Shown here: positions 2,218 through 58,392 of the stretch, piece by piece | How positions within the stretch are numbered: the stretch's first letter is position 1 | Layout of the letters: each line of letters begins with the position of its first letter | IMG/VR virus record: IMGVR_UViG_3300023371_000069 | Strand: one strand, 5' to 3' | Length of the DNA stretch: 58,841 nt | Origin: a virus | Taxonomy: Duplodnaviria > Heunggongvirae > Uroviricota > Caudoviricetes | Notes under the pieces: model-generated | What the model saw: only the letters and a program-made list of their open reading frames with translations | Database searches by the model: none | What the model was told of the DNA's origin: nothing | Program-made: the position numbers and the translations under genes

Positions 2218-2432
2218 TTATTGCTATTTTATGGGCAATCATGTCACTCCTGGTGATGATTCAATATGCACCAGCCTGTAAAGATTTAAATTGGAAAGAC
2301 CAATTAATCGTAGGCATTATCTTTATTATTGGCGGTCCAATATTCGCGGCCGCAAATGTACTTGAAGCAATTTTAGACTGTATTTTACCGGAAGGGTGGG
2401 GGGATGACGACGATGGTCCTTGGAAATATTAA
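2199..2432 (+). CDS. small membrane protein
   Basis: In-frame ATG with GGAAGGA upstream. It has two predicted transmembrane helices and an acidic C-terminus. Confidence 0.4.
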   Translation: METSGLIIAILWAIMSLLVMIQYAPACKDLNWKDQLIVGIIFIIGGPIFAAANVLEAILDCILPEGWGDDDDGPWKY

Positions 2433-3216
2433 AGAATATACTAAAGCACTGAAAGAACAATTTAAAGACCGCATTACCGCAATTGGTGATGCACCTAAGT
2501 TAGCAATTATCCAAGTTGGAAATGTAGAAGCATCAAATCGTTATATCAAAAACAAAGTGAAAGATTGTGAAGAGGTCGGTATCATTGCTGATGTTTATCA
2601 ATATCCAGAGGATATTACTGAACATGAGCTATGTGAAAATATCAAGCTCGACCAGGAACACTATGACGGCGTTATAGTGCAACTACCACTCCCACCTCAT
2701 ATCCGCGAGAAGGTCGTGGTTGCCGCAATCAATCCTTTGAAGGATGTTGATGGATTTCATCCAGATAGTCCTTATGACCCAGCAACTCCCGCAGGCATCA
2801 TGAAATATCTTCGTGCTTGCGATTACGACGTTGCGGGACGCGACGTCGTAATCATTGGTCGCAGTAATATTGTTGGTAAGCCTTTGGCGAGAATGATGAC
2901 AGACGCAGATGCGACAGTAACTCTTTGCCACAGTAAATCAAAATTGTCACATCATTTGTATGGGGCTGACCTGATTGTCACAGCAGTAGGTAAAGCAGGC
3001 TTTTTAAATTGCTACCCAATTCATGTGCCTGTTATTGACGTCGGCATTAACTTTGTAACAGATGCTGAAGGCAGAAGCCGACTTGTCGGCGATGCCTTCA
3101 ATACAGAAGGACGAGATGTAACACCAGTTCCAGGAGGGGTCGGTCTTTTGACCAGATGCGCACTTTTGGAGAATGTAATTGATGCGAAAGCAAGGGTGAG
3201 TTTAAAACGTGGATAA
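2404..3216 (+). CDS. folD: bifunctional 5,10-methylene-tetrahydrofolate dehydrogenase/cyclohydrolase
   Basis: 270 aa carrying FolD motifs: LAIIQVGN..AS..Y, DVDGFHP, TPAGIM, VIIGRSNIVGKP, VTAVGK, PVPGGVGLLT. Confidence 0.85.
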   Translation: MTTMVLGNIKEYTKALKEQFKDRITAIGDAPKLAIIQVGNVEASNRYIKNKVKDCEEVGIIADVYQYPEDITEHELCENIKLDQEHYDGVIVQLPLPPHIREKVVVAAINPLKDVDGFHPDSPYDPATPAGIMKYLRACDYDVAGRDVVIIGRSNIVGKPLARMMTDADATVTLCHSKSKLSHHLYGADLIVTAVGKAGFLNCYPIHVPVIDVGINFVTDAEGRSRLVGDAFNTEGRDVTPVPGGVGLLTRCALLENVIDAKARVSLKRG

Positions 3217-9399: not shown

Positions 9400-9852
9400 A
9401 TGGCAAAGCAGATGAACATCACAATTAACTTCGACATGGACGGCACAATCGCTGACCTCTATGGTGTAGAGAACTGGCTCGAATACCTCATCGCAGGTGA
9501 CACTTTCCCCTACGCAAACGCAAGACCTCTGCTCCACCTCTCCGCACTGGCTCGCAAGCTGAACGCACTTCAGCGGAACGGCTACAACCTCGCAGTTATC
9601 TCTTGGTTGAGCAAAAGTGGAACTGCTGAATACAACGAAGCAGTTACCGAAGTCAAGCTGAACTGGCTGAGAAAGCACCTGCCGAGCGTGAACTGGAACG
9701 AAATCCACATCGTTCCCTATGGCACTCCGAAGCAGAACTTCTGCAACAATCCTCTCGACATTCTGTTCGACGATGAAGAACGCAACAGAACGAACTGGAC
9801 AGGCAGAGCCTACGATGTGCAGAACATCTTGGAAATTCTCAGAGAAATCTGA
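9400..9852 (+). CDS. HAD-superfamily hydrolase (5'(3')-deoxyribonucleotidase-like)
   Basis: N-terminal FDMDGTIADL is the HAD DxDGT motif. The protein is about 150 aa. Confidence 0.55.
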   Translation: MAKQMNITINFDMDGTIADLYGVENWLEYLIAGDTFPYANARPLLHLSALARKLNALQRNGYNLAVISWLSKSGTAEYNEAVTEVKLNWLRKHLPSVNWNEIHIVPYGTPKQNFCNNPLDILFDDEERNRTNWTGRAYDVQNILEILREI

Positions 9853-34982: not shown

Positions 34983-36065
34983 ATGTTAAGCGAATTTATG
35001 TTAAAAGTGAGAGACTTGCACGAGGAAATCAGACAGGTAGCTGAACTTCTGAAACCTCAAGAGATGAAAGACCGTATGGCTTATCTCGAAGCTAAGTTCA
35101 ACCACTCAACCTGGAATGAAATTCCAGAAGAGGAGCTGAAGGAATACTCTCGCCTCAAAAAGAAATATGATTTATATTTCGGTATCTGGAATATGTATGA
35201 TGACCTTAAAACTTTAACTGAGTATGCAATAGAGGAAGGCGAAGTCAACTATTTGCATGAATTTGAGATGGATTATAATTACCTCGTCGAGGAAATCCAA
35301 AAGCTCAAGTTAGAGTTAATGTTCACAGGTAAGTACGATTCCTGCAACGCCATTTTAAATATTCATTCTGGTGCCGGTGGTAAAGAAGCACAAGACTGGA
35401 CCAGAATGTTACTTCAGATGTATGCGGCCTGGGCTAGTAATCATGATTTTCAATTCAATATTTTGGATTGGCAAGATGGTGAAGATAGCTCAGTCGTGAA
35501 AAGTGTTTCGGTAGAAATCAGAGGAGAGAATGTATACGGCTTGCTGAACGCTGAGAATGGCGTCCATCGTTTGGTTCGCGTTTCTCCCTTTGATTCTCAA
35601 AATAGACGCCATACTTCATTCGCAGCAGTCGAAGTAATGCCTGAAATCGAGGCAGATAACTCTGTGGAACTCGATATGAAAGATGTTAGAGTTGATACTT
35701 TCCGTTCAAGCGGAAAAGGCGGTCAGCACGTCAATAAGACTGAATCTGCGATTAGATTAACACATATTCCTACTGGCATTGTGGTGGGGTGCCAGCAAGA
35801 GCGAAGTCAACATCAGAACAAAGAAAAAGCCATGAAGATGCTTATCTCAAGGCTGGTTGCTATTAAAGAAAAAGAACACTATGACAACTTGTCTGAAATT
35901 CAGGGCGAGCAGAGTCGAATCGAATGGGGCAACCAAATTCGTTCTTATGTCTTTATGCCATATCAAATGGTTAAAGACCACAGGACTAACCACCAAACTT
36001 CTAATATTGACGCAGTGATGCGTGGAGATATAGATGAATTCATTTTCAAGAGTCTCGCTGAATAA
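34983..36065 (+). CDS. prfB: peptide chain release factor 2 homologue
   Basis: RF2 'anticodon' motif SPF (RVSPFDSQNRRHTSFA). GGQ catalytic motif (RSSGKGGQHVNKTESAIRLTHIPTGIV). About 360 aa. SD GAGGAGG. Confidence 0.85.
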   Translation: MLSEFMLKVRDLHEEIRQVAELLKPQEMKDRMAYLEAKFNHSTWNEIPEEELKEYSRLKKKYDLYFGIWNMYDDLKTLTEYAIEEGEVNYLHEFEMDYNYLVEEIQKLKLELMFTGKYDSCNAILNIHSGAGGKEAQDWTRMLLQMYAAWASNHDFQFNILDWQDGEDSSVVKSVSVEIRGENVYGLLNAENGVHRLVRVSPFDSQNRRHTSFAAVEVMPEIEADNSVELDMKDVRVDTFRSSGKGGQHVNKTESAIRLTHIPTGIVVGCQQERSQHQNKEKAMKMLISRLVAIKEKEHYDNLSEIQGEQSRIEWGNQIRSYVFMPYQMVKDHRTNHQTSNIDAVMRGDIDEFIFKSLAE

Positions 36066-44467: not shown

Positions 44468-44844
44468 TTGGGCAAAGCCCACAAATGCGTTAACATGGAT
44501 TTGTAAGTTAAACTACCACCGGCTGAGGATACGCAGAGCAATACTGATGCCTTGGATATGTGGCTTTAGTGGAAAACGCTATATAAAGAAGCAAAGTAAA
44601 CTTACACAAGCGAATGAGCAGACAAATTGCGGCCAATAGACTTTCGCTACCGCAAAGATACTGAAACGGGTCAGGTCCAATCGCCCGACTAAGATGCTGA
44701 GGTAAATGAGGTTGGTTTGGGGCTTACTTATGGAAAGCATAAGGACATCCTACGAAAGTAGAGGTACACTCCCCTGTAAAATGCCTACGGCAGTAAAGGT
44801 GGCTCTGAAAAATGTGTCCGCTTAGTCTATAGTATCTTACATAT

Positions 44845-44922
44845 AGCTTCGTAGAGAAGCCTGGAGTTCTCGCCAGTCTGTCACACTGGAAATCGCGGGT
44901 TCAAATCCCGTCGAAGCTGCCA
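44845..44922 (+). tRNA. tRNA-Asp(GUC)
   Basis: Acceptor AGCTTCG/CGAAGCT, loop CTGTCAC, encoded CCA. Confidence 0.65.
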
Positions 44923-45090
44923 TAAAGGTATGTTCCCAGTACCTTGTAGCGGAAAACCTGGGCGTGGAAGAGGAGACGAAAGAATCGCTTTTTTAAGTAG
45001 TAAGTTTTGATGGAGAAACTGCTTCGGGTGTTGATGTGACCCTAGGGCTTAAGAGCATATTAGAGGATAGCTGTCCAACATCATTTATAT

Positions 45091-45167
45091 GGCTTCGTAG
45101 TTCAGTAGCGTAGAATGCCAGCCTGTCACGCTGGAGGTCGGGGGTTCGAGTCCCCTCGGAGTCGCCA
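45091..45167 (+). tRNA. tRNA-Asp(GUC), second copy
   Basis: Acceptor GGCTTCG/CGGAGTC, loop CTGTCAC, encoded CCA. Confidence 0.7.
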
Positions 45168-45279
45168 TCATCCTAACAAAGGAGGATTTTGCTTATGATT
45201 GTATTTGTTAAATCCACTTCGGAGGACACTCCAATCGGCTGATTGGGTTCCTGGGCATGAACAGAAACTGCCCACTATA

Positions 45280-45811
45280 TGCCCGAGTAGCTCAGTTGGT
45301 TTAGAGCGCCGCCCTCATATCGAGCAATACCATATTTGTAAAAAGTAATGGATACAAATATTAAAGGAACAATTACAGAATTAAAGTGTAAAACTTACTT
45401 TTTAGAATTAGGTTATATGGTTTCTACACCAGAAAGCCCAGTTCGATATGACTTCATTTTAGATACTGGTAAAGAGTTGCTGAAAATTCAAGTCAAAACC
45501 AGTCATACCGATGGAGAAAAAATTATCTTCAAAACGAGTTCAACTCATATTACCGCAAAAGGAAATACAGTGCATCACTATAAAGATGATGGTATAGATT
45601 ATTTTTGCACTTGGTTTGATAATGAATGTTATTTGGTACCTGTGCAAGATTGCGGAAAAAGTGAAAAATATTTACGATTGATTCCCACTAAAAATGGGCA
45701 AGTCAAAAATATTGCTTTTGCGAAAGACTATGTTGCAAAGGAGGTCTTAGCAAATAAGTGAGCTTGATATGAAGGCGGAGGTCGTGGGTTCGATTCCCAC
45801 CTTTGGTACCA
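45280..45811 (+). tRNA. tRNA-Met(CAU)-like gene interrupted in the anticodon loop by a 454-nt insertion encoding a nuclease
   Basis: 5' part GCCCGAG TA GCTC..GAGC G CCGCC CTCAT (45280-45317). 3' part AA GGCGG AGGTC GTGGG TTCGATT CCCAC CTTTGGT A CCA (45772-45811). The anticodon stem matches across the break, but the acceptor pairing is imperfect. Confidence 0.4.
45348..45761 (+). CDS. Hjc-like PD-(D/E)xK nuclease, putative homing endonuclease (copy 1)
   Basis: Paralogue of 53105..53512 and 56023..56430. Sits inside the split tRNA gene. Confidence 0.5.
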   Translation: MDTNIKGTITELKCKTYFLELGYMVSTPESPVRYDFILDTGKELLKIQVKTSHTDGEKIIFKTSSTHITAKGNTVHHYKDDGIDYFCTWFDNECYLVPVQDCGKSEKYLRLIPTKNGQVKNIAFAKDYVAKEVLANK

Positions 45812-45888
45812 ACCGCTAAGGCGGTTTTCATTTCCTTTCATGTGCGGTCGTGGGGGCTCCGACCGGAAAAACAATCCCCCTTTGATAT

Positions 45889-45965
45889 TGCAGGGTAGAG
45901 CAGTCTGGCAGCTCGTCGGGTTCATAACCCGGAGGTCGGAGGTTCGAATCCTTCCCCTGCACCCA
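45889..45965 (+). tRNA. tRNA-Met(CAU), possibly the initiator type (3 G:C pairs in the anticodon stem)
   Basis: Acceptor TGCAGGG/CCCTGCA. Anticodon arm TCGGG/TTCATAA/CCCGG. Encoded CCA. Confidence 0.6.
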
Positions 45966-45966
45966 T

Positions 45967-46043
45967 TGCGGAGTGGAGCAGATGGTAGCTCGTTAGCCTC
46001 ATAAGCTAAAGGTCGCTGGTTCGAGTCCAGCCTCTCGCACCCA
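45967..46043 (+). tRNA. tRNA(CAU) (Met, or Ile2 if modified)
   Basis: Anticodon arm TTAGC/CTCATAA/GCTAA. The acceptor has a mismatch and a bulge. Confidence 0.4.
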
Positions 46044-46109
46044 AGGGATAGCACTCCCTTTCTTGACGTGATGTTTTTTAGGCACACACAGCAATATTTT
46101 TCTTTAAGA

Positions 46110-46172
46110 AAAAATTTAGCTCATTTGGTAGAGCAATTGTCTGTTAAACAATGTGTAGTGGGTTCAATTCCC
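46110..46172 (+). tRNA. tRNA-Asn(GUU)-like with an A/T-rich acceptor, possible pseudogene
   Basis: Anticodon arm ATTGT/CTGTTAA/ACAAT. No CCA. Confidence 0.25.
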
Positions 46173-46282
46173 TCAATTCTTTCTTTTGTGCCTAGTCAAA
46201 AGCATCGGCAGACTGAAAATTGGACTGAAAAATTTAATGTGGTCTACTTAAAATTCAATAATAGTAGAAGGAGTTGAGTTTT

Positions 46283-46765
46283 ATGTCTAATATTAAAATC
46301 TGTACAAAATGTAAAAGAGAGTTGCCTATTTCTGAATTTCGTTGGAAAAATAAAACCAAGGGGATTCATCATTCGCAATGTAAAGATTGCCAAAAGGCAC
46401 AAGAAAAAGTCCATTATCAAGAGAGTAAAGAGCGTAGAGATGCAGTTAGAGCAACTGCAGATACTCAAAAGTTAAACAATCTTGGAATTATTGATAATGC
46501 TAAAGCGTGTGGTTGTCGTAAATGTGGAGAAAAACGTCCATATGTTTTAGACTTCCATCATCGAGACCCCTCGGTAAAAGAAGGAACTATCAATCATATG
46601 TTAAAATCTTCAAGTTTTGAAAAACTTATGGAAGAAATTAATAAATGTGATGTTTTATGTGCCAACTGTCATAGAGAATTTCATCATTTGGAAAGAGAAA
46701 TTGGAATTTCTTATGATGAATATATAGATGGGACGGTGGCGTACACGGTTGGCGCGCCGGTCTGA
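46283..46765 (+). CDS. HNH homing endonuclease (copy 1)
   Basis: HNH motif LDFHHRDP..K..CANCHREFHH plus Zn-binding Cys pairs. SD AAGGAG. The 3' end overlaps tRNA-Phe by about 36 nt. Confidence 0.7.
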   Translation: MSNIKICTKCKRELPISEFRWKNKTKGIHHSQCKDCQKAQEKVHYQESKERRDAVRATADTQKLNNLGIIDNAKACGCRKCGEKRPYVLDFHHRDPSVKEGTINHMLKSSSFEKLMEEINKCDVLCANCHREFHHLEREIGISYDEYIDGTVAYTVGAPV

Positions 46766-51793: not shown

Positions 51794-52630
51794 ATATATG
51801 TAAGGTTATGAGAAGAGTACACTTCCCTTTCGAGGATATATGATGATTCCAAGTGCGCCGGGTTCGTGGCTTAAGCCGATAAGTGAGAAAGATAAGGCGG
51901 CCGGTAAGAGGGTCTGTTGAAGGACTGTTTCTTTGACACTTGTTTCTCCTAAAATCTTAACCTTTTTAAGCAACCGATAACTGATAACCCTCCGCTGAAT
52001 AAGCCTGGTGGTTGCGATTTCGACTAATATCAGTTTGAACCTTGAAAAGTTTGCATCTCGGTGAAGAGCGAATCCCATCGTGCCGAGAACCCAATCCTGC
52101 CTGCGGGCGCCAGGAGTCCGAAATAATTTTGTCGACGATAGCCGGCAATAGGTAGAGGGCTTGCGTTGTGAAGCGTGAGTTCCGCCTCAGAACTGAGGTC
52201 CTGGATGGAGGGGTGTGCAATCATAACCGCATCTAAAAACACTGTCTCGTCGCTTCCGCAATAGACGCCCCTGTGGGGAATAAGCCATGTTAGGGTTTAG
52301 CTGGTGACTGTACCAAACCATGGTAGACCAATAAGGAAGTTTGCGTTGATGACCGGGTGACCGGCCTATAAGACGAGGTTGTGGTACGAGTAGCCCAATC
52401 GCAAAGAACATTAATGCTTGATGATTTAGTTGGTTATTATCAAATATTTCTGAATGGCGGGTGAAAGTTGCAGGCAATCATTCCTGCATGGGACTTGGTC
52501 GAAAGACTGGGGCCGGAAGTTAGGGGTCGCTCCCCGAAGCTCAGACCGTGTCTCCCCATTGGTTGAATATAGGTGAAGGTTAAACAGAGTGTATGGCGAA
52601 GGTCAGCAAACTTTTCAAGATTCTAAATAT

Positions 52631-53104: not shown

Positions 53105-53512
53105 ATGTTATTTGAAACAAATCGTGATAAAGGTCGCGCAGGCATGGCGATGGCAATCGCCTATTTTGGAGCCAATGGATATACAATTAATGTCCCTCTA
53201 AACGATACTCAATGGTATGATTTAGTCATTGAAAAAGATGGCGTATTTAAAACAGTTCAATGTAAAGCAACTGGTAGTGCTGATAATAGTGTTTCAATTA
53301 AAAGCACTGGTGGTACAAAAGGTAGTGTGTATGATACTATATTAAACCACCCTGTTGATTATTTATTCTGTTTAGATGGGGAAATGCATATGTATGTCAT
53401 TCCAGTTCAAGATTTGCGAGATTATGGAGTGAGTAAACAAATTACTCTCCGCACTCAAAAATCTGCCAATGGACAAGGTTTTCAAACTTATCAATATATG
53501 GTGTCTATTTAA
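53105..53512 (+). CDS. Hjc-like PD-(D/E)xK nuclease, putative homing endonuclease (copy 2)
   Basis: KGRAG..AYF..GY.INVPLNDTQWYDLVIEKDGVFKTVQCK matches the Holliday-junction-resolvase-like fold. Confidence 0.5.
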   Translation: MLFETNRDKGRAGMAMAIAYFGANGYTINVPLNDTQWYDLVIEKDGVFKTVQCKATGSADNSVSIKSTGGTKGSVYDTILNHPVDYLFCLDGEMHMYVIPVQDLRDYGVSKQITLRTQKSANGQGFQTYQYMVSI

Positions 53513-53520
53513 TACCATAT

Positions 53521-53607
53521 GGGTCAGTACAGTGTAACTGGTATCACCCCTGACTGTAAATCAGGTGCTTAATGCGGTTGTAGGTTCGAGTCCTACCTGG
53601 CCCACCA
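53521..53607 (+). tRNA. tRNA-Tyr(GUA), type II
   Basis: Acceptor GGGTCAG/CTGGCCC, anticodon arm CCTGA/CTGTAAA/TCAGG, long variable arm, encoded CCA. Confidence 0.6.
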
Positions 53608-56433: not shown

Positions 56434-56508
56434 TGGGGTGTCGTTCAAAGGTTAGGACCGCGGTCTCTAAAATCGCAGATGTCAGTTCGATTCTGACCGC
56501 CCCCGCCA
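56434..56508 (+). tRNA. amber suppressor tRNA-Sup(CUA), type I, Gln-like
   Basis: Acceptor TGGGGTG/CGCCCCC (weak 1:72 pair), disc G, D-arm GTTC/AAAGGTTA/GGAC, anticodon arm GCGGT/CTCTAAA/ATCGC, T-arm GTCAG/TTCGATT/CTGAC, encoded CCA. Same architecture as the Gln tRNAs at 51362 and 51506. Confidence 0.7.
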
Positions 56509-56605
56509 TGGGGTGTATTCTAATGGTAAGAAAAGAGTCTCTAAAACTCCAGGAAGCACGGCTCTGACCCGTGATGTGGGGGTTCGAATCCCTCCACCCC
56601 AGCCA
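56509..56605 (+). tRNA. second tRNA-Sup(CUA), type II (long variable arm, G73, Ser-like)
   Basis: Acceptor TGGGGTG/CACCCCA, anticodon arm (A)GAGT/CTCTAAA/ACTC(C), 27-nt variable arm with a CACGG/CTCTGAC/CCGTG hairpin, T-arm GGGGG/TTCGAAT/CCCTC, encoded CCA. Abuts the previous tRNA with no spacer. Confidence 0.55.
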
Positions 56606-57979: not shown

Positions 57980-58392
57980 GGGTCAAGTGTGAGAAAGTTC
58001 ATTGGCATCGCTGACGGTAAATGGCAATCTATGTGAAAGGGCCTAAGTAGCATAGTGCGCAAGCATCTCGTAGTTCAGTCGTTGGAGAATCTTAAAGAGC
58101 AACGGATTTCTTGGTTAGGCCAATCAAGAAAGAGGAATTCTGTCGTTAAGTTCCTAATAAAGAAAGCGACACAGCGGGGGTACTATGTGCGAAGAATAGT
58201 ACGCCCCGCATCCCATCTAAACCGGTCTTGCCTTGTGCACTGGGAGAAATTCCTCAAGACCGCCTCATACTGAGGGTACGATTAAGGTTTTACAGTAGGG
58301 ACTAAGTGGCAATCGTGTAACAGGAAATCTGACACGACCTAAGCCCTAAAATTAGCCTTAATCATTGTTTTTTCTAATCCAAAAATCTTTTT

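Follow-up and report, generated by a model that had tools for sequence, protein, structure and literature searches.

The tRNA(CAU) gene at positions 45281–45811 of this viral DNA (the 58,841-nt stretch that was analysed, hereafter the window) is interrupted in its anticodon loop by a 453-nt insert that encodes a homing endonuclease and has no ribozyme, and the ends of the insert can pair with each other and with the anticodon. Judging from sequence comparisons, we see an even chance that the insert is a mobile 'hairpin intron', which would be excised by protein enzymes and whose flanking tRNA halves would be joined by an RNA ligase. It belongs to a large family of mobile elements, not described before, that inhabit the tRNA arrays of large gut and rumen phages of the Firmicutes type. 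Each consists of a PF11645 gene with non-coding sequence on either side (about 30 nt on one and about 14 nt on the other), and lies between tRNA nucleotides 36 and 37. Searches of the full-text literature returned no account of tRNA inserts that carry PF11645 but no ribozyme.

The split tRNA(CAU) gene

When run in its intron mode, ARAGORN called tRNA-Met(cat) as a single gene at 45281–45811 with an intron of 453 nt (ctcat|intron|aaggc); the standard mode misses this gene. The call confirms the original prediction of a CAU tRNA split by a nuclease-encoding insert and its end at 45811, and it corrects the start from 45280 to 45281 and the length of the insert from 454 to 453 nt. The 5′ exon (45281–45318, nucleotides 1–36) ends in CCGCC CUCAU, in which the anticodon CAU occupies 45316–45318. 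The insert extends from 45319 to 45771, and the 3′ exon (45772–45811, nucleotides 37–76, including an encoded CCA) begins with AA GGCGG. All of these features lie on the forward strand, and after excision of the insert the two exons, 78 nt in all, form a cloverleaf. The 5-bp anticodon stem and the 7-nt loop CUCAUAA are restored by the excision, as had been anticipated.

The acceptor strands had been described as pairing poorly, which was an overstatement: six of the seven positions pair, with four Watson-Crick pairs, two G·U pairs and one C/U mismatch. Because G1·U72 also occurs in the related exons of four other loci (L010, L147, L014 and L015), it is a trait of this type of tRNA and not a sign of decay. 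Comparison of the exons with those of relatives likewise indicates that the flanks are not chimeric remnants of two different tRNAs. The suggestion of a trans-processed split tRNA finds no support, in that the two halves lie on the same strand, 453 nt apart, and are followed by a single terminator-like hairpin and T run (45811–45826, forward strand) directly 3′ of the tRNA. The remaining intron calls of ARAGORN in the window each span two neighbouring tRNAs, and none of them is a second real split tRNA.

Is this gene dispensable to the phage? The best match of the split tRNA body is E. coli tRNA-Ile. Both intact CAU tRNAs, called 'Met', match tRNA-Met genes that occur four times per E. coli genome, which we take to be the initiator set, and the copy at 45889–45965 has the three G–C pairs typical of initiators. 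By these resemblances, both intact CAU tRNAs are probably initiator-like and the split one Ile-like, and the split tRNA seems to be the sole non-initiator CAU tRNA of the array. The intact Met copies at 45889 and 45967, which had been named as possible substitutes, thus probably do not make it dispensable. No intronless allele of the same tRNA was found: uninterrupted genes with an identical anticodon arm are present on seven viral contigs, and all seven matches are other tRNAs. Among GenBank phages there were no close relatives, and only tRNA-sized matches were returned.

An endonuclease of the I-Ssp6803I family

The insert contains an ORF of 414 nt (45348–45761, forward strand), which leaves 39 nt non-coding. 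Its product of 137 aa is a PD-(D/E)XK homing endonuclease of the I-Ssp6803I family. It matches the Pfam profile PF11645 over residues 1–129 with 84.3 bits (cut-off, 26.1 bits; E = 1.1e-23), and 2OST, the solved structure of I-Ssp6803I, is its sole sequence match in the PDB. In a fold search with the AlphaFold model (pLDDT 88.8), the best matches were four 2OST chains (TM 0.75, E = 1.5e-7), and Hjc resolvases were found at E of about 0.02. The motif YDFILD...KIQVK aligns with YDLVFD...KVQVK of 2OST, and E11, D35, Q48 and K50 are invariant among 41 homologs. Profile, fold and active-site motif all place the protein in the PF11645/I-Ssp6803I family; the earlier description as an Hjc-like nuclease ORF was right about the nuclease and its length of 414 nt, and wrong about the family.

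No Shine-Dalgarno motif was found within 20 nt upstream of the start in any of the 16 Met-family or 16 Asn-family copies. A Shine-Dalgarno-like GGAGG (45740–45744, forward strand, within AAGGAGGU) lies inside the last ORF codons, 5 nt upstream of helix 2 (described below). In 15 of 16 members of the Met family, 16 of 16 of the Asn family and 6 of 6 of the Ser family, a motif of the GGAGG type occurs within the final 60 nt of the insert, and none precedes the start codon in these three families. The AAG GAG codons at the motif run counter to the preference of these ORFs for AAA and GAA. Sitting inside a tRNA and without an upstream Shine-Dalgarno motif, the ORF does not qualify as a free-standing homing endonuclease gene. 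A free-standing PF11645 paralog, with AAGGAG upstream, is located at 53105–53512 of the window.

Related inserts in many tRNAs

Homologs of the endonuclease numbered 233. Among the 143 homologous ORFs with enough flanking sequence, 109 sit at 36|37 of a tRNA that ARAGORN recognizes after removal of the insert. Distinct junctions among them number 73 and fall into about 20 anticodon types as called (a few of the calls are mis-registered solutions); 44 of the junctions are positionally unambiguous. An identical endonuclease protein is recorded on at least 23 contigs. Taken together, the repeated recovery of the same protein and the shared position of the 109 homologs indicate that the arrangement is not a product of chance, and they remove the possibility, raised earlier, that the insert is confined to this genome. 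The contigs that carry such inserts are mostly those of large gut and rumen phages, and one insert family occupies tRNA(CAU) backbones that clearly differ. Some copies (L004/L094, L041 and L107) have a degenerate appearance. A circular-RNA signature considered in two very short contigs, L169 and L170, was dismissed, both being ordinary genomic fragments with exons.

The host tRNAs are structurally intact. Exons of the split tRNAs (n = 73) form 19.6 Watson-Crick pairs with 0.74 mismatches, compared with 19.7 and 0.61 in intact neighbours (n = 327), and related insert-bearing tRNAs show compensatory differences in the acceptor stem. Recent and repeated homing into healthy tRNA genes could also leave the exons intact. 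The same arrays contain further ribozyme-free inserts in anticodon loops, including a nested tRNA (L151, 9670–9819), hairpins with NCCA tails (L132 and L139) and a 46-nt derivative that has no ORF.

RNA helices formed by the insert ends

In the folded precursor, the anticodon stem runs on into one long helix. Helix 1 is formed by 45316–45325, that is, C34, A35 and U36 followed by insert bases 1–7 (AUCGAGC), and by 45762–45771 (GCUUGAUAUG), the last three bases of which, AUG (45769–45771), complement the anticodon. In helix 2, UAUUUGU (45333–45339), within the 5′ untranslated part of the insert, pairs with GCAAAUA (45750–45756), which lies over the last ORF codons and ends 2 nt before the UGA stop (45759–45761). 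All four strands are numbered on the forward strand. Helix 1 is present in the MFE structures of the whole 531-nt precursor and of a mini-precursor, helix 2 is present in that of the mini-precursor, and the MFE folds retain the cloverleaf together with the extended helix. The two junctions, 36|i1 and iN|37 (where i1 and iN are the first and last bases of the insert), therefore lie on opposite strands of one helix, 3 bp apart, with 3′ overhangs.

These helices are supported by covariation. In the Met family (17 sequences), 93% of cells pair, double changes are seen in 13 pairs, and covariation scores 0.484, compared with 0.175 in shuffles (0/500) and at most 0.10 in slid controls. In helix 2, compensatory changes affect five of the seven pairs, and 97.5% of cells are paired. 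Statistics across families were computed by script in a fixed register; a MAFFT alignment of 69 junctions misregistered some families. In the register 34:iN, paired runs average 6.0, compared with 0.2–1.0 when the 3′ strand is slid, and 92% of the anticodon/anti-anticodon cells are paired, compared with 51% in shuffles (maximum 60% of 1000). About 14 complementary combinations of anticodon and insert end occur, and within one insert family CAU/AUG has changed to CGU/ACG, loci L151 and L152 having the anticodon CGU and the insert end ACG. Across the first 10 positions, G·U outnumbers A·C by 94 to 22, and this excess indicates that the constraint acts on the sense-strand RNA. Two causes of the terminal complementarity at the level of DNA were considered and dropped, in that a target-site duplication yields a direct and not an inverted repeat, and DNA cut at the two junctions would have identical overhangs that could not be ligated. 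Selection solely for expression of the endonuclease or for stability of the RNA could also account for the helices, the anticodon pairing included.

Group I intron and other self-splicing readings

Might the insert be a group I or other self-splicing intron, with a core that shares sequence with the ORF or is provided in trans? Group I introns are the only other setting in which PF11645 genes are known (PMC1995217, PMC13011429), and this copy does have a U before the insert and a G at its end, as the original prediction observed; moreover, GUGAG (45758–45762) could pair with the exon sequence CUCAU as a P1-like helix, which is 91.8% paired in the family. We nevertheless regard self-splicing as highly improbable. 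The covariance-model scan with Rfam found no group I or group II match, nor any other ribozyme match, at E ≤ 10 in 44800–46300, and no group I or group II match at the gathering score in the window plus 19 loci, although the same scan recovered group I introns (RF00028) in the tRNAs of L120 (61.5 bits) and L151 (35.9 bits), which served as positive controls. The 39 non-coding nucleotides compare with 184 nt for the smallest tRNA group I introns reported (PMC13011429), so the insert is, as the original prediction had it, not long enough to hold a group I ribozyme. Synonymous variation is distributed over the entire ORF, with no block in which it is suppressed. As a sign of group I splicing, the terminal U and G fail among the relatives: at the 73 junctions, base 36 is T in 55, A in 9, C in 7 and G in 2, and the last insert base is A in 28, G in 22, C in 20 and T in 3. 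In this copy they are by-products of the CAU anticodon, the insert end being its complement (AUG). As for the P1-like pairing, one pair is changed on both sides, in two near-identical sequences, shuffles score equally, and the pairing is absent in other families. A further pairing, CAUAUCU/AGAUAUG, was also discarded: it shows almost no covariation, is equalled by shuffles, competes with helix 1 and is not general.

How might the insert be removed?

We considered that proteins might do what a ribozyme does elsewhere. At the DNA level, the endonuclease would cut uninterrupted tRNA genes at the anticodon, and repair would copy the element in; such homing would explain the occurrence of one insert family in different tRNA(CAU) backbones. 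At the RNA level, both strands of the anticodon–intron helix would be cut by an endonuclease, with no RNA catalysis, and the anticodon loop would be sealed by an RNA ligase, either of the phage T4 Rnl1 type (as in L157) or from the host. The simplest candidate for this cutting step may be the intron's own dimeric or tetrameric PD-(D/E)XK enzyme, given that 3 bp of a single helix separate the two junctions. To that enzyme the folded RNA would present a duplex copy of the left half of the DNA target and of its centre. The junctions would correspond to the positions at which I-Ssp6803I reportedly cuts DNA, on both flanks of the anticodon triplet and with 3-nt 3′ ends. Such cuts would give 3′-OH and 5′-phosphate ends that ATP-dependent RNA ligases could join directly. 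Translation of the endonuclease would start from a ribosome-binding site that helix 2 brings together, GGAGG being located at the 3′ end of the ORF and the AUG just after the 5′ strand of the helix. The full proposal is tentative, and we consider it rather doubtful: bacterial viruses would have a third class of tRNA intron, dependent on proteins, whose endonuclease cuts DNA at the anticodon flanks and an RNA duplex at the same positions, after which an Rnl1- or RtcB-type ligase seals the product. PF11645 enzymes are not known to cleave RNA, and we know of no bacterial or phage enzyme that cuts a continuous RNA helix 3 bp apart. A T4 Rnl1-type gene is located 8 kb from the insert in L157; linkage to Rnl1 was seen in this locus only, and a viral scan revealed no relatives of this Rnl1. 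Pfam searches of the 59-kb window (about 90 ORFs) found no RNA ligase or EndA-like gene, and none was found in the 10 kb upstream.

Two of the readings offered originally remain live, namely a novel minimal intron and inactivation of the tRNA by a homing endonuclease. According to the latter, the insert would be an unspliced, selfish endonuclease gene that inactivates an accessory phage tRNA and spreads by homing despite the cost; the helices would serve transcript stability and the ribosome-binding site, and the exons would be intact because the invasions are recent and recurrent. We hold this to be a real possibility, albeit a minority one. It would readily accommodate the lack of an identified splicing machinery in the window and the 10 kb upstream, the degenerate appearance of some copies, the role in expression that the layout of GGAGG and helix 2 gives to the helices, and the abundance of free-standing endonuclease genes in phage tRNA arrays, among them the second PF11645 gene in the window and GIY-YIG/HNH genes in relatives. 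It sits less easily with exons that pair in 73 split tRNAs as they do in 327 intact neighbours, whereas the endonucleases have diverged to 59% identity in one family. Nor would it predict that, in about 14 anticodon types, the first pair is exactly that between nucleotide 34 and the final base of the insert, which argues that both junctions are specified and that the helix is not merely a stable stem. The 46-nt derivative without an ORF in L017 retains the terminal pairing in an otherwise intact tRNA, and, apart from initiators, the array seems to have no CAU tRNA other than the one that would be sacrificed here.

If the insert is a protein-spliced intron, the cut might be made not by its own endonuclease but by a host or phage RNase, ruler-type or double-strand-specific, that reads the tRNA body and the extended helix, with a ligase joining the halves. 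What is constant across the families is indeed geometry and not sequence (anticodon stem, 2×2 loop and helix), and the ORF-less or tRNA-like inserts (L017, L132, L139 and L150–152) would need trans-acting enzymes such as RNase P. However, RNase III leaves 2-nt 3′ overhangs and those here would be 3 nt, one would expect RNase P and RNase Z to act at helix ends and not 3 bp inside, and no candidate gene is consistently linked to the inserts, so that we think an RNase of this kind quite unlikely. Pairing between anticodon and intron is also found in archaeal and eukaryal pre-tRNAs, and tRNA splicing endonucleases belong to the same PD-(D/E)XK fold superfamily as the endonuclease encoded here (PMC3424549), as an archaeal-type bulge-helix-bulge intron might lead one to expect. 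Yet the 3-nt bulges and the 4-bp central helix are both missing, the junctions lie inside a continuous covarying helix at 36/37 and not at 37/38, no EndA-family match was found in the window, and the fold match of the model to a splicing endonuclease is insignificant (E = 0.47). The related idea that the split tRNA works as unjoined halves conflicts with the behaviour of tRNAs nicked in the anticodon loop, which are known from anticodon nucleases to be inactive in translation. Both ideas have, in our view, very little chance of being correct.

Comparison with known systems

The group I intron in the tRNA-fMet gene of Synechocystis PCC 6803 (I-Ssp6803I) resembles the present insert in its endonuclease family and in its location in the anticodon loop of a CAU tRNA, and the DNA target logic, a pseudo-palindromic anticodon stem-loop, is presumably alike. 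Other known PF11645 group I introns interrupt tRNA-Arg(UCU) of Bacteroidota and Campylobacterota. Known introns of this kind measure 655 nt, of which about 200 nt are ribozyme, and lie at 33/34 after U33 (PMC1995217, PMC13011429), whereas the insert described here has 453 nt, 39 of them non-coding, is without a ribozyme and lies at 36/37. A 3′ end that pairs with the anticodon is a feature of this insert that the group I introns do not have.

The archaeal bulge-helix-bulge introns of rRNAs and tRNAs, some of which contain homing-endonuclease ORFs, are similar in having no ribozyme, an ORF in a loop, and pairing between anticodon and intron; their paired ends likewise present the splice sites to a symmetric protein nuclease, and a protein ligase is needed. 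In contrast, the present insert has neither bulges nor a 4-bp spacer (3 bp in a continuous helix), occupies another position, encodes a PD-(D/E)XK and not a LAGLIDADG enzyme, and resides in a bacterial virus. We know of no splicing endonuclease in the bacterial domain.

Partial parallels exist among bacteria and their phages. In the anticodon-loop repair of phage T4 (cutting by PrrC, healing by Pnkp and sealing by Rnl1), a ligase closes a broken anticodon loop, which is the step needed here, but this system mends a single host-inflicted nick at 33/34 and removes no insert. The intervening sequences excised by RNase III from 23S rRNA are bacterial inserts whose ends form a helix and which a protein nuclease removes with no ribozyme; however, the rRNA fragments work unligated after a 2-nt stagger, whereas the tRNA would need ligation after a 3-nt stagger. 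Free-standing endonuclease genes in phage tRNA regions, such as T4 SegB (as cited in PMC8421152), target tRNA genes and spread within arrays, and genes split by insertion of an endonuclease gene can be grouped with them as a known parallel. Unlike the present element, which lies inside a tRNA and forms RNA helices that define the junctions, the free-standing genes lie between genes and have their own ribosome-binding sites.

Implications for tRNA splicing and annotation

Protein-only splicing of tRNAs is regarded as an archaeal and eukaryal trait, and to our knowledge every tRNA intron so far reported from bacteria or phages splices itself, most belonging to group I and a few to group II. The family described here, with more than 100 loci in many tRNA species, no ribozyme, strongly covarying helices that mark both junctions and structurally intact host tRNAs, suggests that bacterial viruses may carry protein-spliced tRNA introns. 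If the inserts are spliced, phage and bacterial RNA ligases would gain a natural splicing substrate, and the origin of PD-(D/E)XK splicing endonucleases would become testable with one small protein and a 531-nt RNA; if the endonuclease acts on both DNA and RNA, it would be a present-day counterpart of the step that may have turned a PD-(D/E)XK DNA nuclease into a tRNA splicing endonuclease. If they are not spliced, they would still illustrate clearly how an endonuclease gene can inactivate a tRNA and assemble its ribosome-binding site across an RNA helix. Because standard annotation misses such split genes, phage tRNA repertoires are under-counted, and the omissions include what is apparently the only non-initiator CAU tRNA of this array.

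The interrupted tRNA gene and its endonuclease

What kind of element interrupts this tRNA gene? An array of 39 tRNA genes lies on the plus strand of the window, and ARAGORN in intron mode called a further tRNA(cat) at 45281-45811, with a 453-nt insert between nucleotides 36 and 37 (flanks ...CCGCC CUCAU and AA GGCGG...) and a terminator-like hairpin 3′ of the gene. The insert holds an ORF of 137 amino acids (45348-45761, plus strand), leaving non-coding stretches of 29 nt before and 10 nt after it; on this call and the extent of the ORF, the gene structure and flanks described in the original prediction are right to within one base. Removal of the insert leaves a cloverleaf of 18 Watson-Crick and 2 G.U pairs with a single mismatch, inside the range of nearby uninterrupted tRNAs, and the G1.U72 pair is also found in related exons at L010, L147, L014 and L015, loci gathered from other contigs.

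The ORF product, first described as an Hjc-like nuclease, belongs by profile to PF11645 (PDDEXK_5), the I-Ssp6803I homing-endonuclease family (84.3 bits vs a cut-off of 26.1). The I-Ssp6803I structure 2OST is its only sequence match among solved structures, and four 2OST chains are the best fold matches of its AlphaFold model (pLDDT 88.8; TM 0.75), to which Hjc resolvases are marginal fold matches only. The D...QxK motif of 2OST aligns with residues E11, D35, Q48 and K50, which are invariant in 41 homologs. The homing endonuclease I-Ssp6803I belongs to a 655-nt group I intron in Synechocystis tRNA-fMet (PMC1995217). The ORF product itself is unremarkable within its known family, whereas the element that carries it is not of an ordinary type. 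A second PF11645 gene (53105-53512, plus strand; 135 aa, E 4e-16) is free-standing, lacks flanking tRNA halves and lies 8 nt upstream of tRNA-Tyr (53521-53607).

The ORF protein has 233 homologs (E<=1e-3). Viral contigs, metagenomes and MAGs yielded about 170 loci. Most are of human gut or rumen origin and sit on contigs of 100-190 kb; a few are binned with Clostridia or Bacilli. The insert is not confined to this genome: among the 143 endonuclease copies flanked by 200 nt or more, removal of the insert at position 36/37 left an ARAGORN-recognised tRNA in 109. These represent 73 distinct junctions, with the anticodons CAU (16), GUU (16), UGU (15), UGA (6) and about a dozen others; 44 of the 73 are positionally unambiguous and cannot be shifted by even one base. 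Insert length is 450-490 nt throughout. We rate the element as an endonuclease-bearing mobile tRNA intron or insertion. Full-text literature searches returned no description of ribozyme-free PF11645 inserts in tRNAs. We see a considerable probability that the element stands for a mode of splicing hitherto unknown in bacteria and their viruses.

Absence of a group I ribozyme

The reading of the insert as a group I intron was rejected on Rfam scans, synonymous variation and the lack of conservation of its U and G ends. Neither a permissive scan of 44800-46300 (E<=10) nor a gathering-threshold scan of the window and 19 related loci gave an intron or ribozyme match, which bears out the original view that the insert has no room for a ribozyme core. 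This null result is meaningful because the same tool detected the group I model RF00028 in tRNA genes of two sister loci, L120 (61.5 bits) and L151 (35.9 bits). These are ordinary ORF-less group I introns in similar phage arrays (L120 345-563; L151 2425-2615), so that ribozyme-bearing and ribozyme-free inserts coexist there, both kinds being present in L151. Synonymous codon variation extends along the entire ORF in 16 family members, and hence no hidden conserved core is apparent within it. The group-I-like ends noted originally, a U before the insert and a G at its end, are indeed present, but they are peculiar to CAU hosts and not general among the 73 junctions, where the last insert base is A in 28, G in 22, C in 20 and T in 3. 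The insert departs from group I introns in three of their defining features, differs from bulge-helix-bulge introns in having no such motif, and is not a free-standing endonuclease gene.

RNA architecture at the junctions

In every family of inserts the last three insert bases are the complement of the anticodon; directly upstream of those three, the bases pair with the opening 3-7 bases of the insert. When nucleotide 34 was set against the final insert base and the following positions accordingly, unbroken pairing ran for 6.0 positions on average, vs 0.2-1.0 when the 3′ strand was slid by 1-3 bases; 92% of anticodon/anti-anticodon cells were paired, vs 51% in 1000 shuffles (maximum 60%). About 14 complementary combinations of anticodon and insert end occur, among them CAU/AUG, CGU/ACG, GUU/AGC, UGU/ACA, UGA/UCA, UUU/AAA and GAU/AUC. 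The most telling case is that of L151/L152, whose endonuclease is 78% identical to that of the window; the host anticodon is CGU, and the insert ends in ACG, not AUG. Within the first ten positions there are more G.U pairs than A.C oppositions (94 vs 22), as would be expected from selection on the sense-strand RNA rather than on a DNA inverted repeat.

A nested model was evaluated on 17 distinct Met-family sequences, four of them hand-registered using N placeholders. It comprises the anticodon stem, helix 1 (nucleotides 34-36 and insert bases 1-7, pairing with the final ten insert bases) and helix 2 (UAUYUR of the 5′ leader with the ORF end). In this model 93% of cells are paired, 13 of 22 pairs have changes on both sides, and the covariation score is 0.484, vs 0.175 for shuffles (0/500) and <=0.10 for slid controls. 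Two alternative pairings, the P1-like CUCAU/GUGAG and CAUAUCU/AGAUAUG, pair well but were rejected, since they show almost no covariation, with both-sided change in one pair from two near-identical sequences, and shuffles equal them. The minimum free energy fold of the full 531-nt precursor retains the acceptor, D and T arms, and past a C32.A38 mismatch its anticodon stem continues into a helix of 11 bp that begins at U33-A37 and reaches insert base 7; in a mini-precursor helix 2 forms as well. This extended pairing places both junctions on opposite strands of one continuous helix, three anticodon base pairs apart, with 3′ overhangs. In Asn- and Lys-family inserts, such as L024 1466-1934 and L098 1467-1937, an internal loop between the terminal helices has CUGA in its 5′ strand and CUGAUGU in its 3′ strand, a resemblance to boxes D and C that might indicate a kink-turn.

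The same helices may bear on expression. A Shine-Dalgarno sequence precedes the insert ORF in 0/16 Met, 0/16 Asn, 1/6 Ser and 1/15 Thr members, and GGAGG lies within the last ORF codons in 15/16, 16/16, 6/6 and 7/15, respectively, where its AAG GAG codons run contrary to the strong AAA/GAA preference of these ORFs (706:178 and 520:149). GGAGG stands 5 nt before the 3′ strand of helix 2 and the AUG 8 nt after its 5′ strand, so that helix 2, or a circularised insert, would juxtapose the two. The free-standing paralog (53105-53512) is preceded by an ordinary AAGGAG and lacks the 3′ motif. Any ribosome that terminates at the stop codon would open up helices 2 and 1, which would make translation and the splicing-competent fold mutually exclusive.

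Splicing or inactivation

How might the tRNA survive such an insertion? We give an even chance to the insert being a protein-spliced intron, judging from sequence comparison. At the DNA level the endonuclease would home at the anticodon stem-loop; at the RNA level protein enzymes would excise the insert, and ligation would follow. The left half-site of the presumed DNA target and its centre recur in the folded precursor as an RNA duplex, with nucleotides 27-36 on one strand and the anti-anticodon, A37, A38 and 39-43 on the other, and the two junctions flank the anticodon triplet at a distance of 3 nt, with 3′ overhangs. In work by Bonocora and Shub from 2001, I-Ssp6803I reportedly cuts DNA on either side of the anticodon triplet, leaving 3-nt 3′ overhangs. 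This pattern agrees with the cyanobacterial tRNA intron position, 33/34 (PMC13011429), and with the present insert at 36/37. A symmetric PD-(D/E)XK dimer cutting both strands would leave 3′-OH and 5′-phosphate ends, which a T4 Rnl1-type ligase could seal in the anticodon loop. That the insert's own endonuclease is the cutter we consider unlikely overall. The tRNA splicing endonucleases share its fold superfamily and have a different active site (PMC3424549). In L157 a T4 Rnl1-type RNA ligase gene (PF09511; 8709-9845) is found at 8 kb from the insert, and L158 has a weak RNA-ligase-like match; no RNA ligase gene was found in the window or the adjoining upstream stretch. Near inserts there are a weak PHA02142-type match (L158 14370-15647), DUF2828/DUF7788 proteins (L158 2205-3752; L159 8742-10190) and a weak Y-RNA-like match (L132 341-435), which together with the ligase hint at RNA-repair modules in these phages.

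The insert might instead knock out the tRNA without being spliced, a reading we hold to be rather unlikely. Repeated homing into healthy alleles could yield the same picture of intact exons, and a few insert copies (L004/L094, L041, L107) look degenerate. Against this, the 73 split tRNAs after excision are about as well paired (means of 19.63 Watson-Crick, 1.45 G.U and 0.74 mismatched stem positions) as 327 distinct uninterrupted tRNAs of the same loci (19.73, 1.75 and 0.61). In the Met family one insert lineage occupies clearly different tRNA backbones, and the differences between related backbones are compensated stem changes. Nor do the intact tRNA-Met copies nearby probably make the split gene dispensable, a question raised originally: both adjoining 'Met' genes match the four-copy E. 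coli tRNA-Met genes, which we take to be the initiator set, and the one at 45889-45965 has the three consecutive G-C pairs typical of initiators. The body of the split tRNA matches E. coli tRNA-Ile, so that it is probably the array's only elongator-type CAU tRNA (Met or Ile2), which argues that it is needed.

Other inserts and genomic context

The same arrays contain other inserts without a recognisable ribozyme. In three independent assemblies (L150, L151 and L152, about 9670-9819), an otherwise perfect tRNA-Lys(UUU) is interrupted precisely at 36/37 by a complete 74-nt tRNA-Asn(GUU) that runs from its first base through CCA. ORF-less anticodon-loop inserts of 70-119 nt (L132 1270-1412; L139 1136-1284; L045 2785-2976) have a closing 5-9-bp stem followed by an ACCA/GCCA-like (NCCA) 3′ tail, an acceptor-stem mimic that might direct RNase P; their junctions are ambiguous by 1-2 nt. 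The tRNA(CAU) at L017 1663-1782 carries a 46-nt ORF-less insert at 36/37 whose ends resemble the Met-family insert (AUCUGAGG...AAUCGGAUAUA), and the full 120 nt are covered by the Rfam tRNA model. A deletion that spared the terminal helix probably gave rise to this insert. The inserts of these arrays suggest either that these phage-host systems are able to join the halves of a tRNA again or that DNA capture has a hot spot at the site cut by the endonuclease.

The genomic context of the window is phage-like. A FolD-like methylene-THF dehydrogenase/cyclohydrolase gene (2404-3216, plus strand) and SPbeta-type yonB/yonD/yonG homologs just upstream of the window (L171 116-8704) assign the phage to the SPbeta-like phages of Firmicutes. 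The phage also encodes a class I release factor (PCRF and RF-1 domains; 34983-36065, plus strand) and two adjacent tRNAs with anticodon CUA, labelled 'Pyl' by ARAGORN (56434-56605, plus strand), a combination that suggests amber stop-codon reassignment or suppression during infection. A full-length ROOL RNA lies within the tRNA array (52033-52624, plus strand; 312.6 bits vs a gathering score of 99.1), and another occurs in a second insert-bearing phage locus (L003 5894-6402). A partial OLE RNA match at the array end (58280-58363, plus strand; model positions 439-592; 53.5 bits vs 50) may be chance or fragmentary. Between tRNA-Asn and tRNA-Phe, a Cys/His-rich ORF of 163 aa (46274-46765, plus strand) with CxxC ... 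HH motifs and no Pfam match overlaps the tRNA-Phe start (46730) and may be another endonuclease gene of the array.
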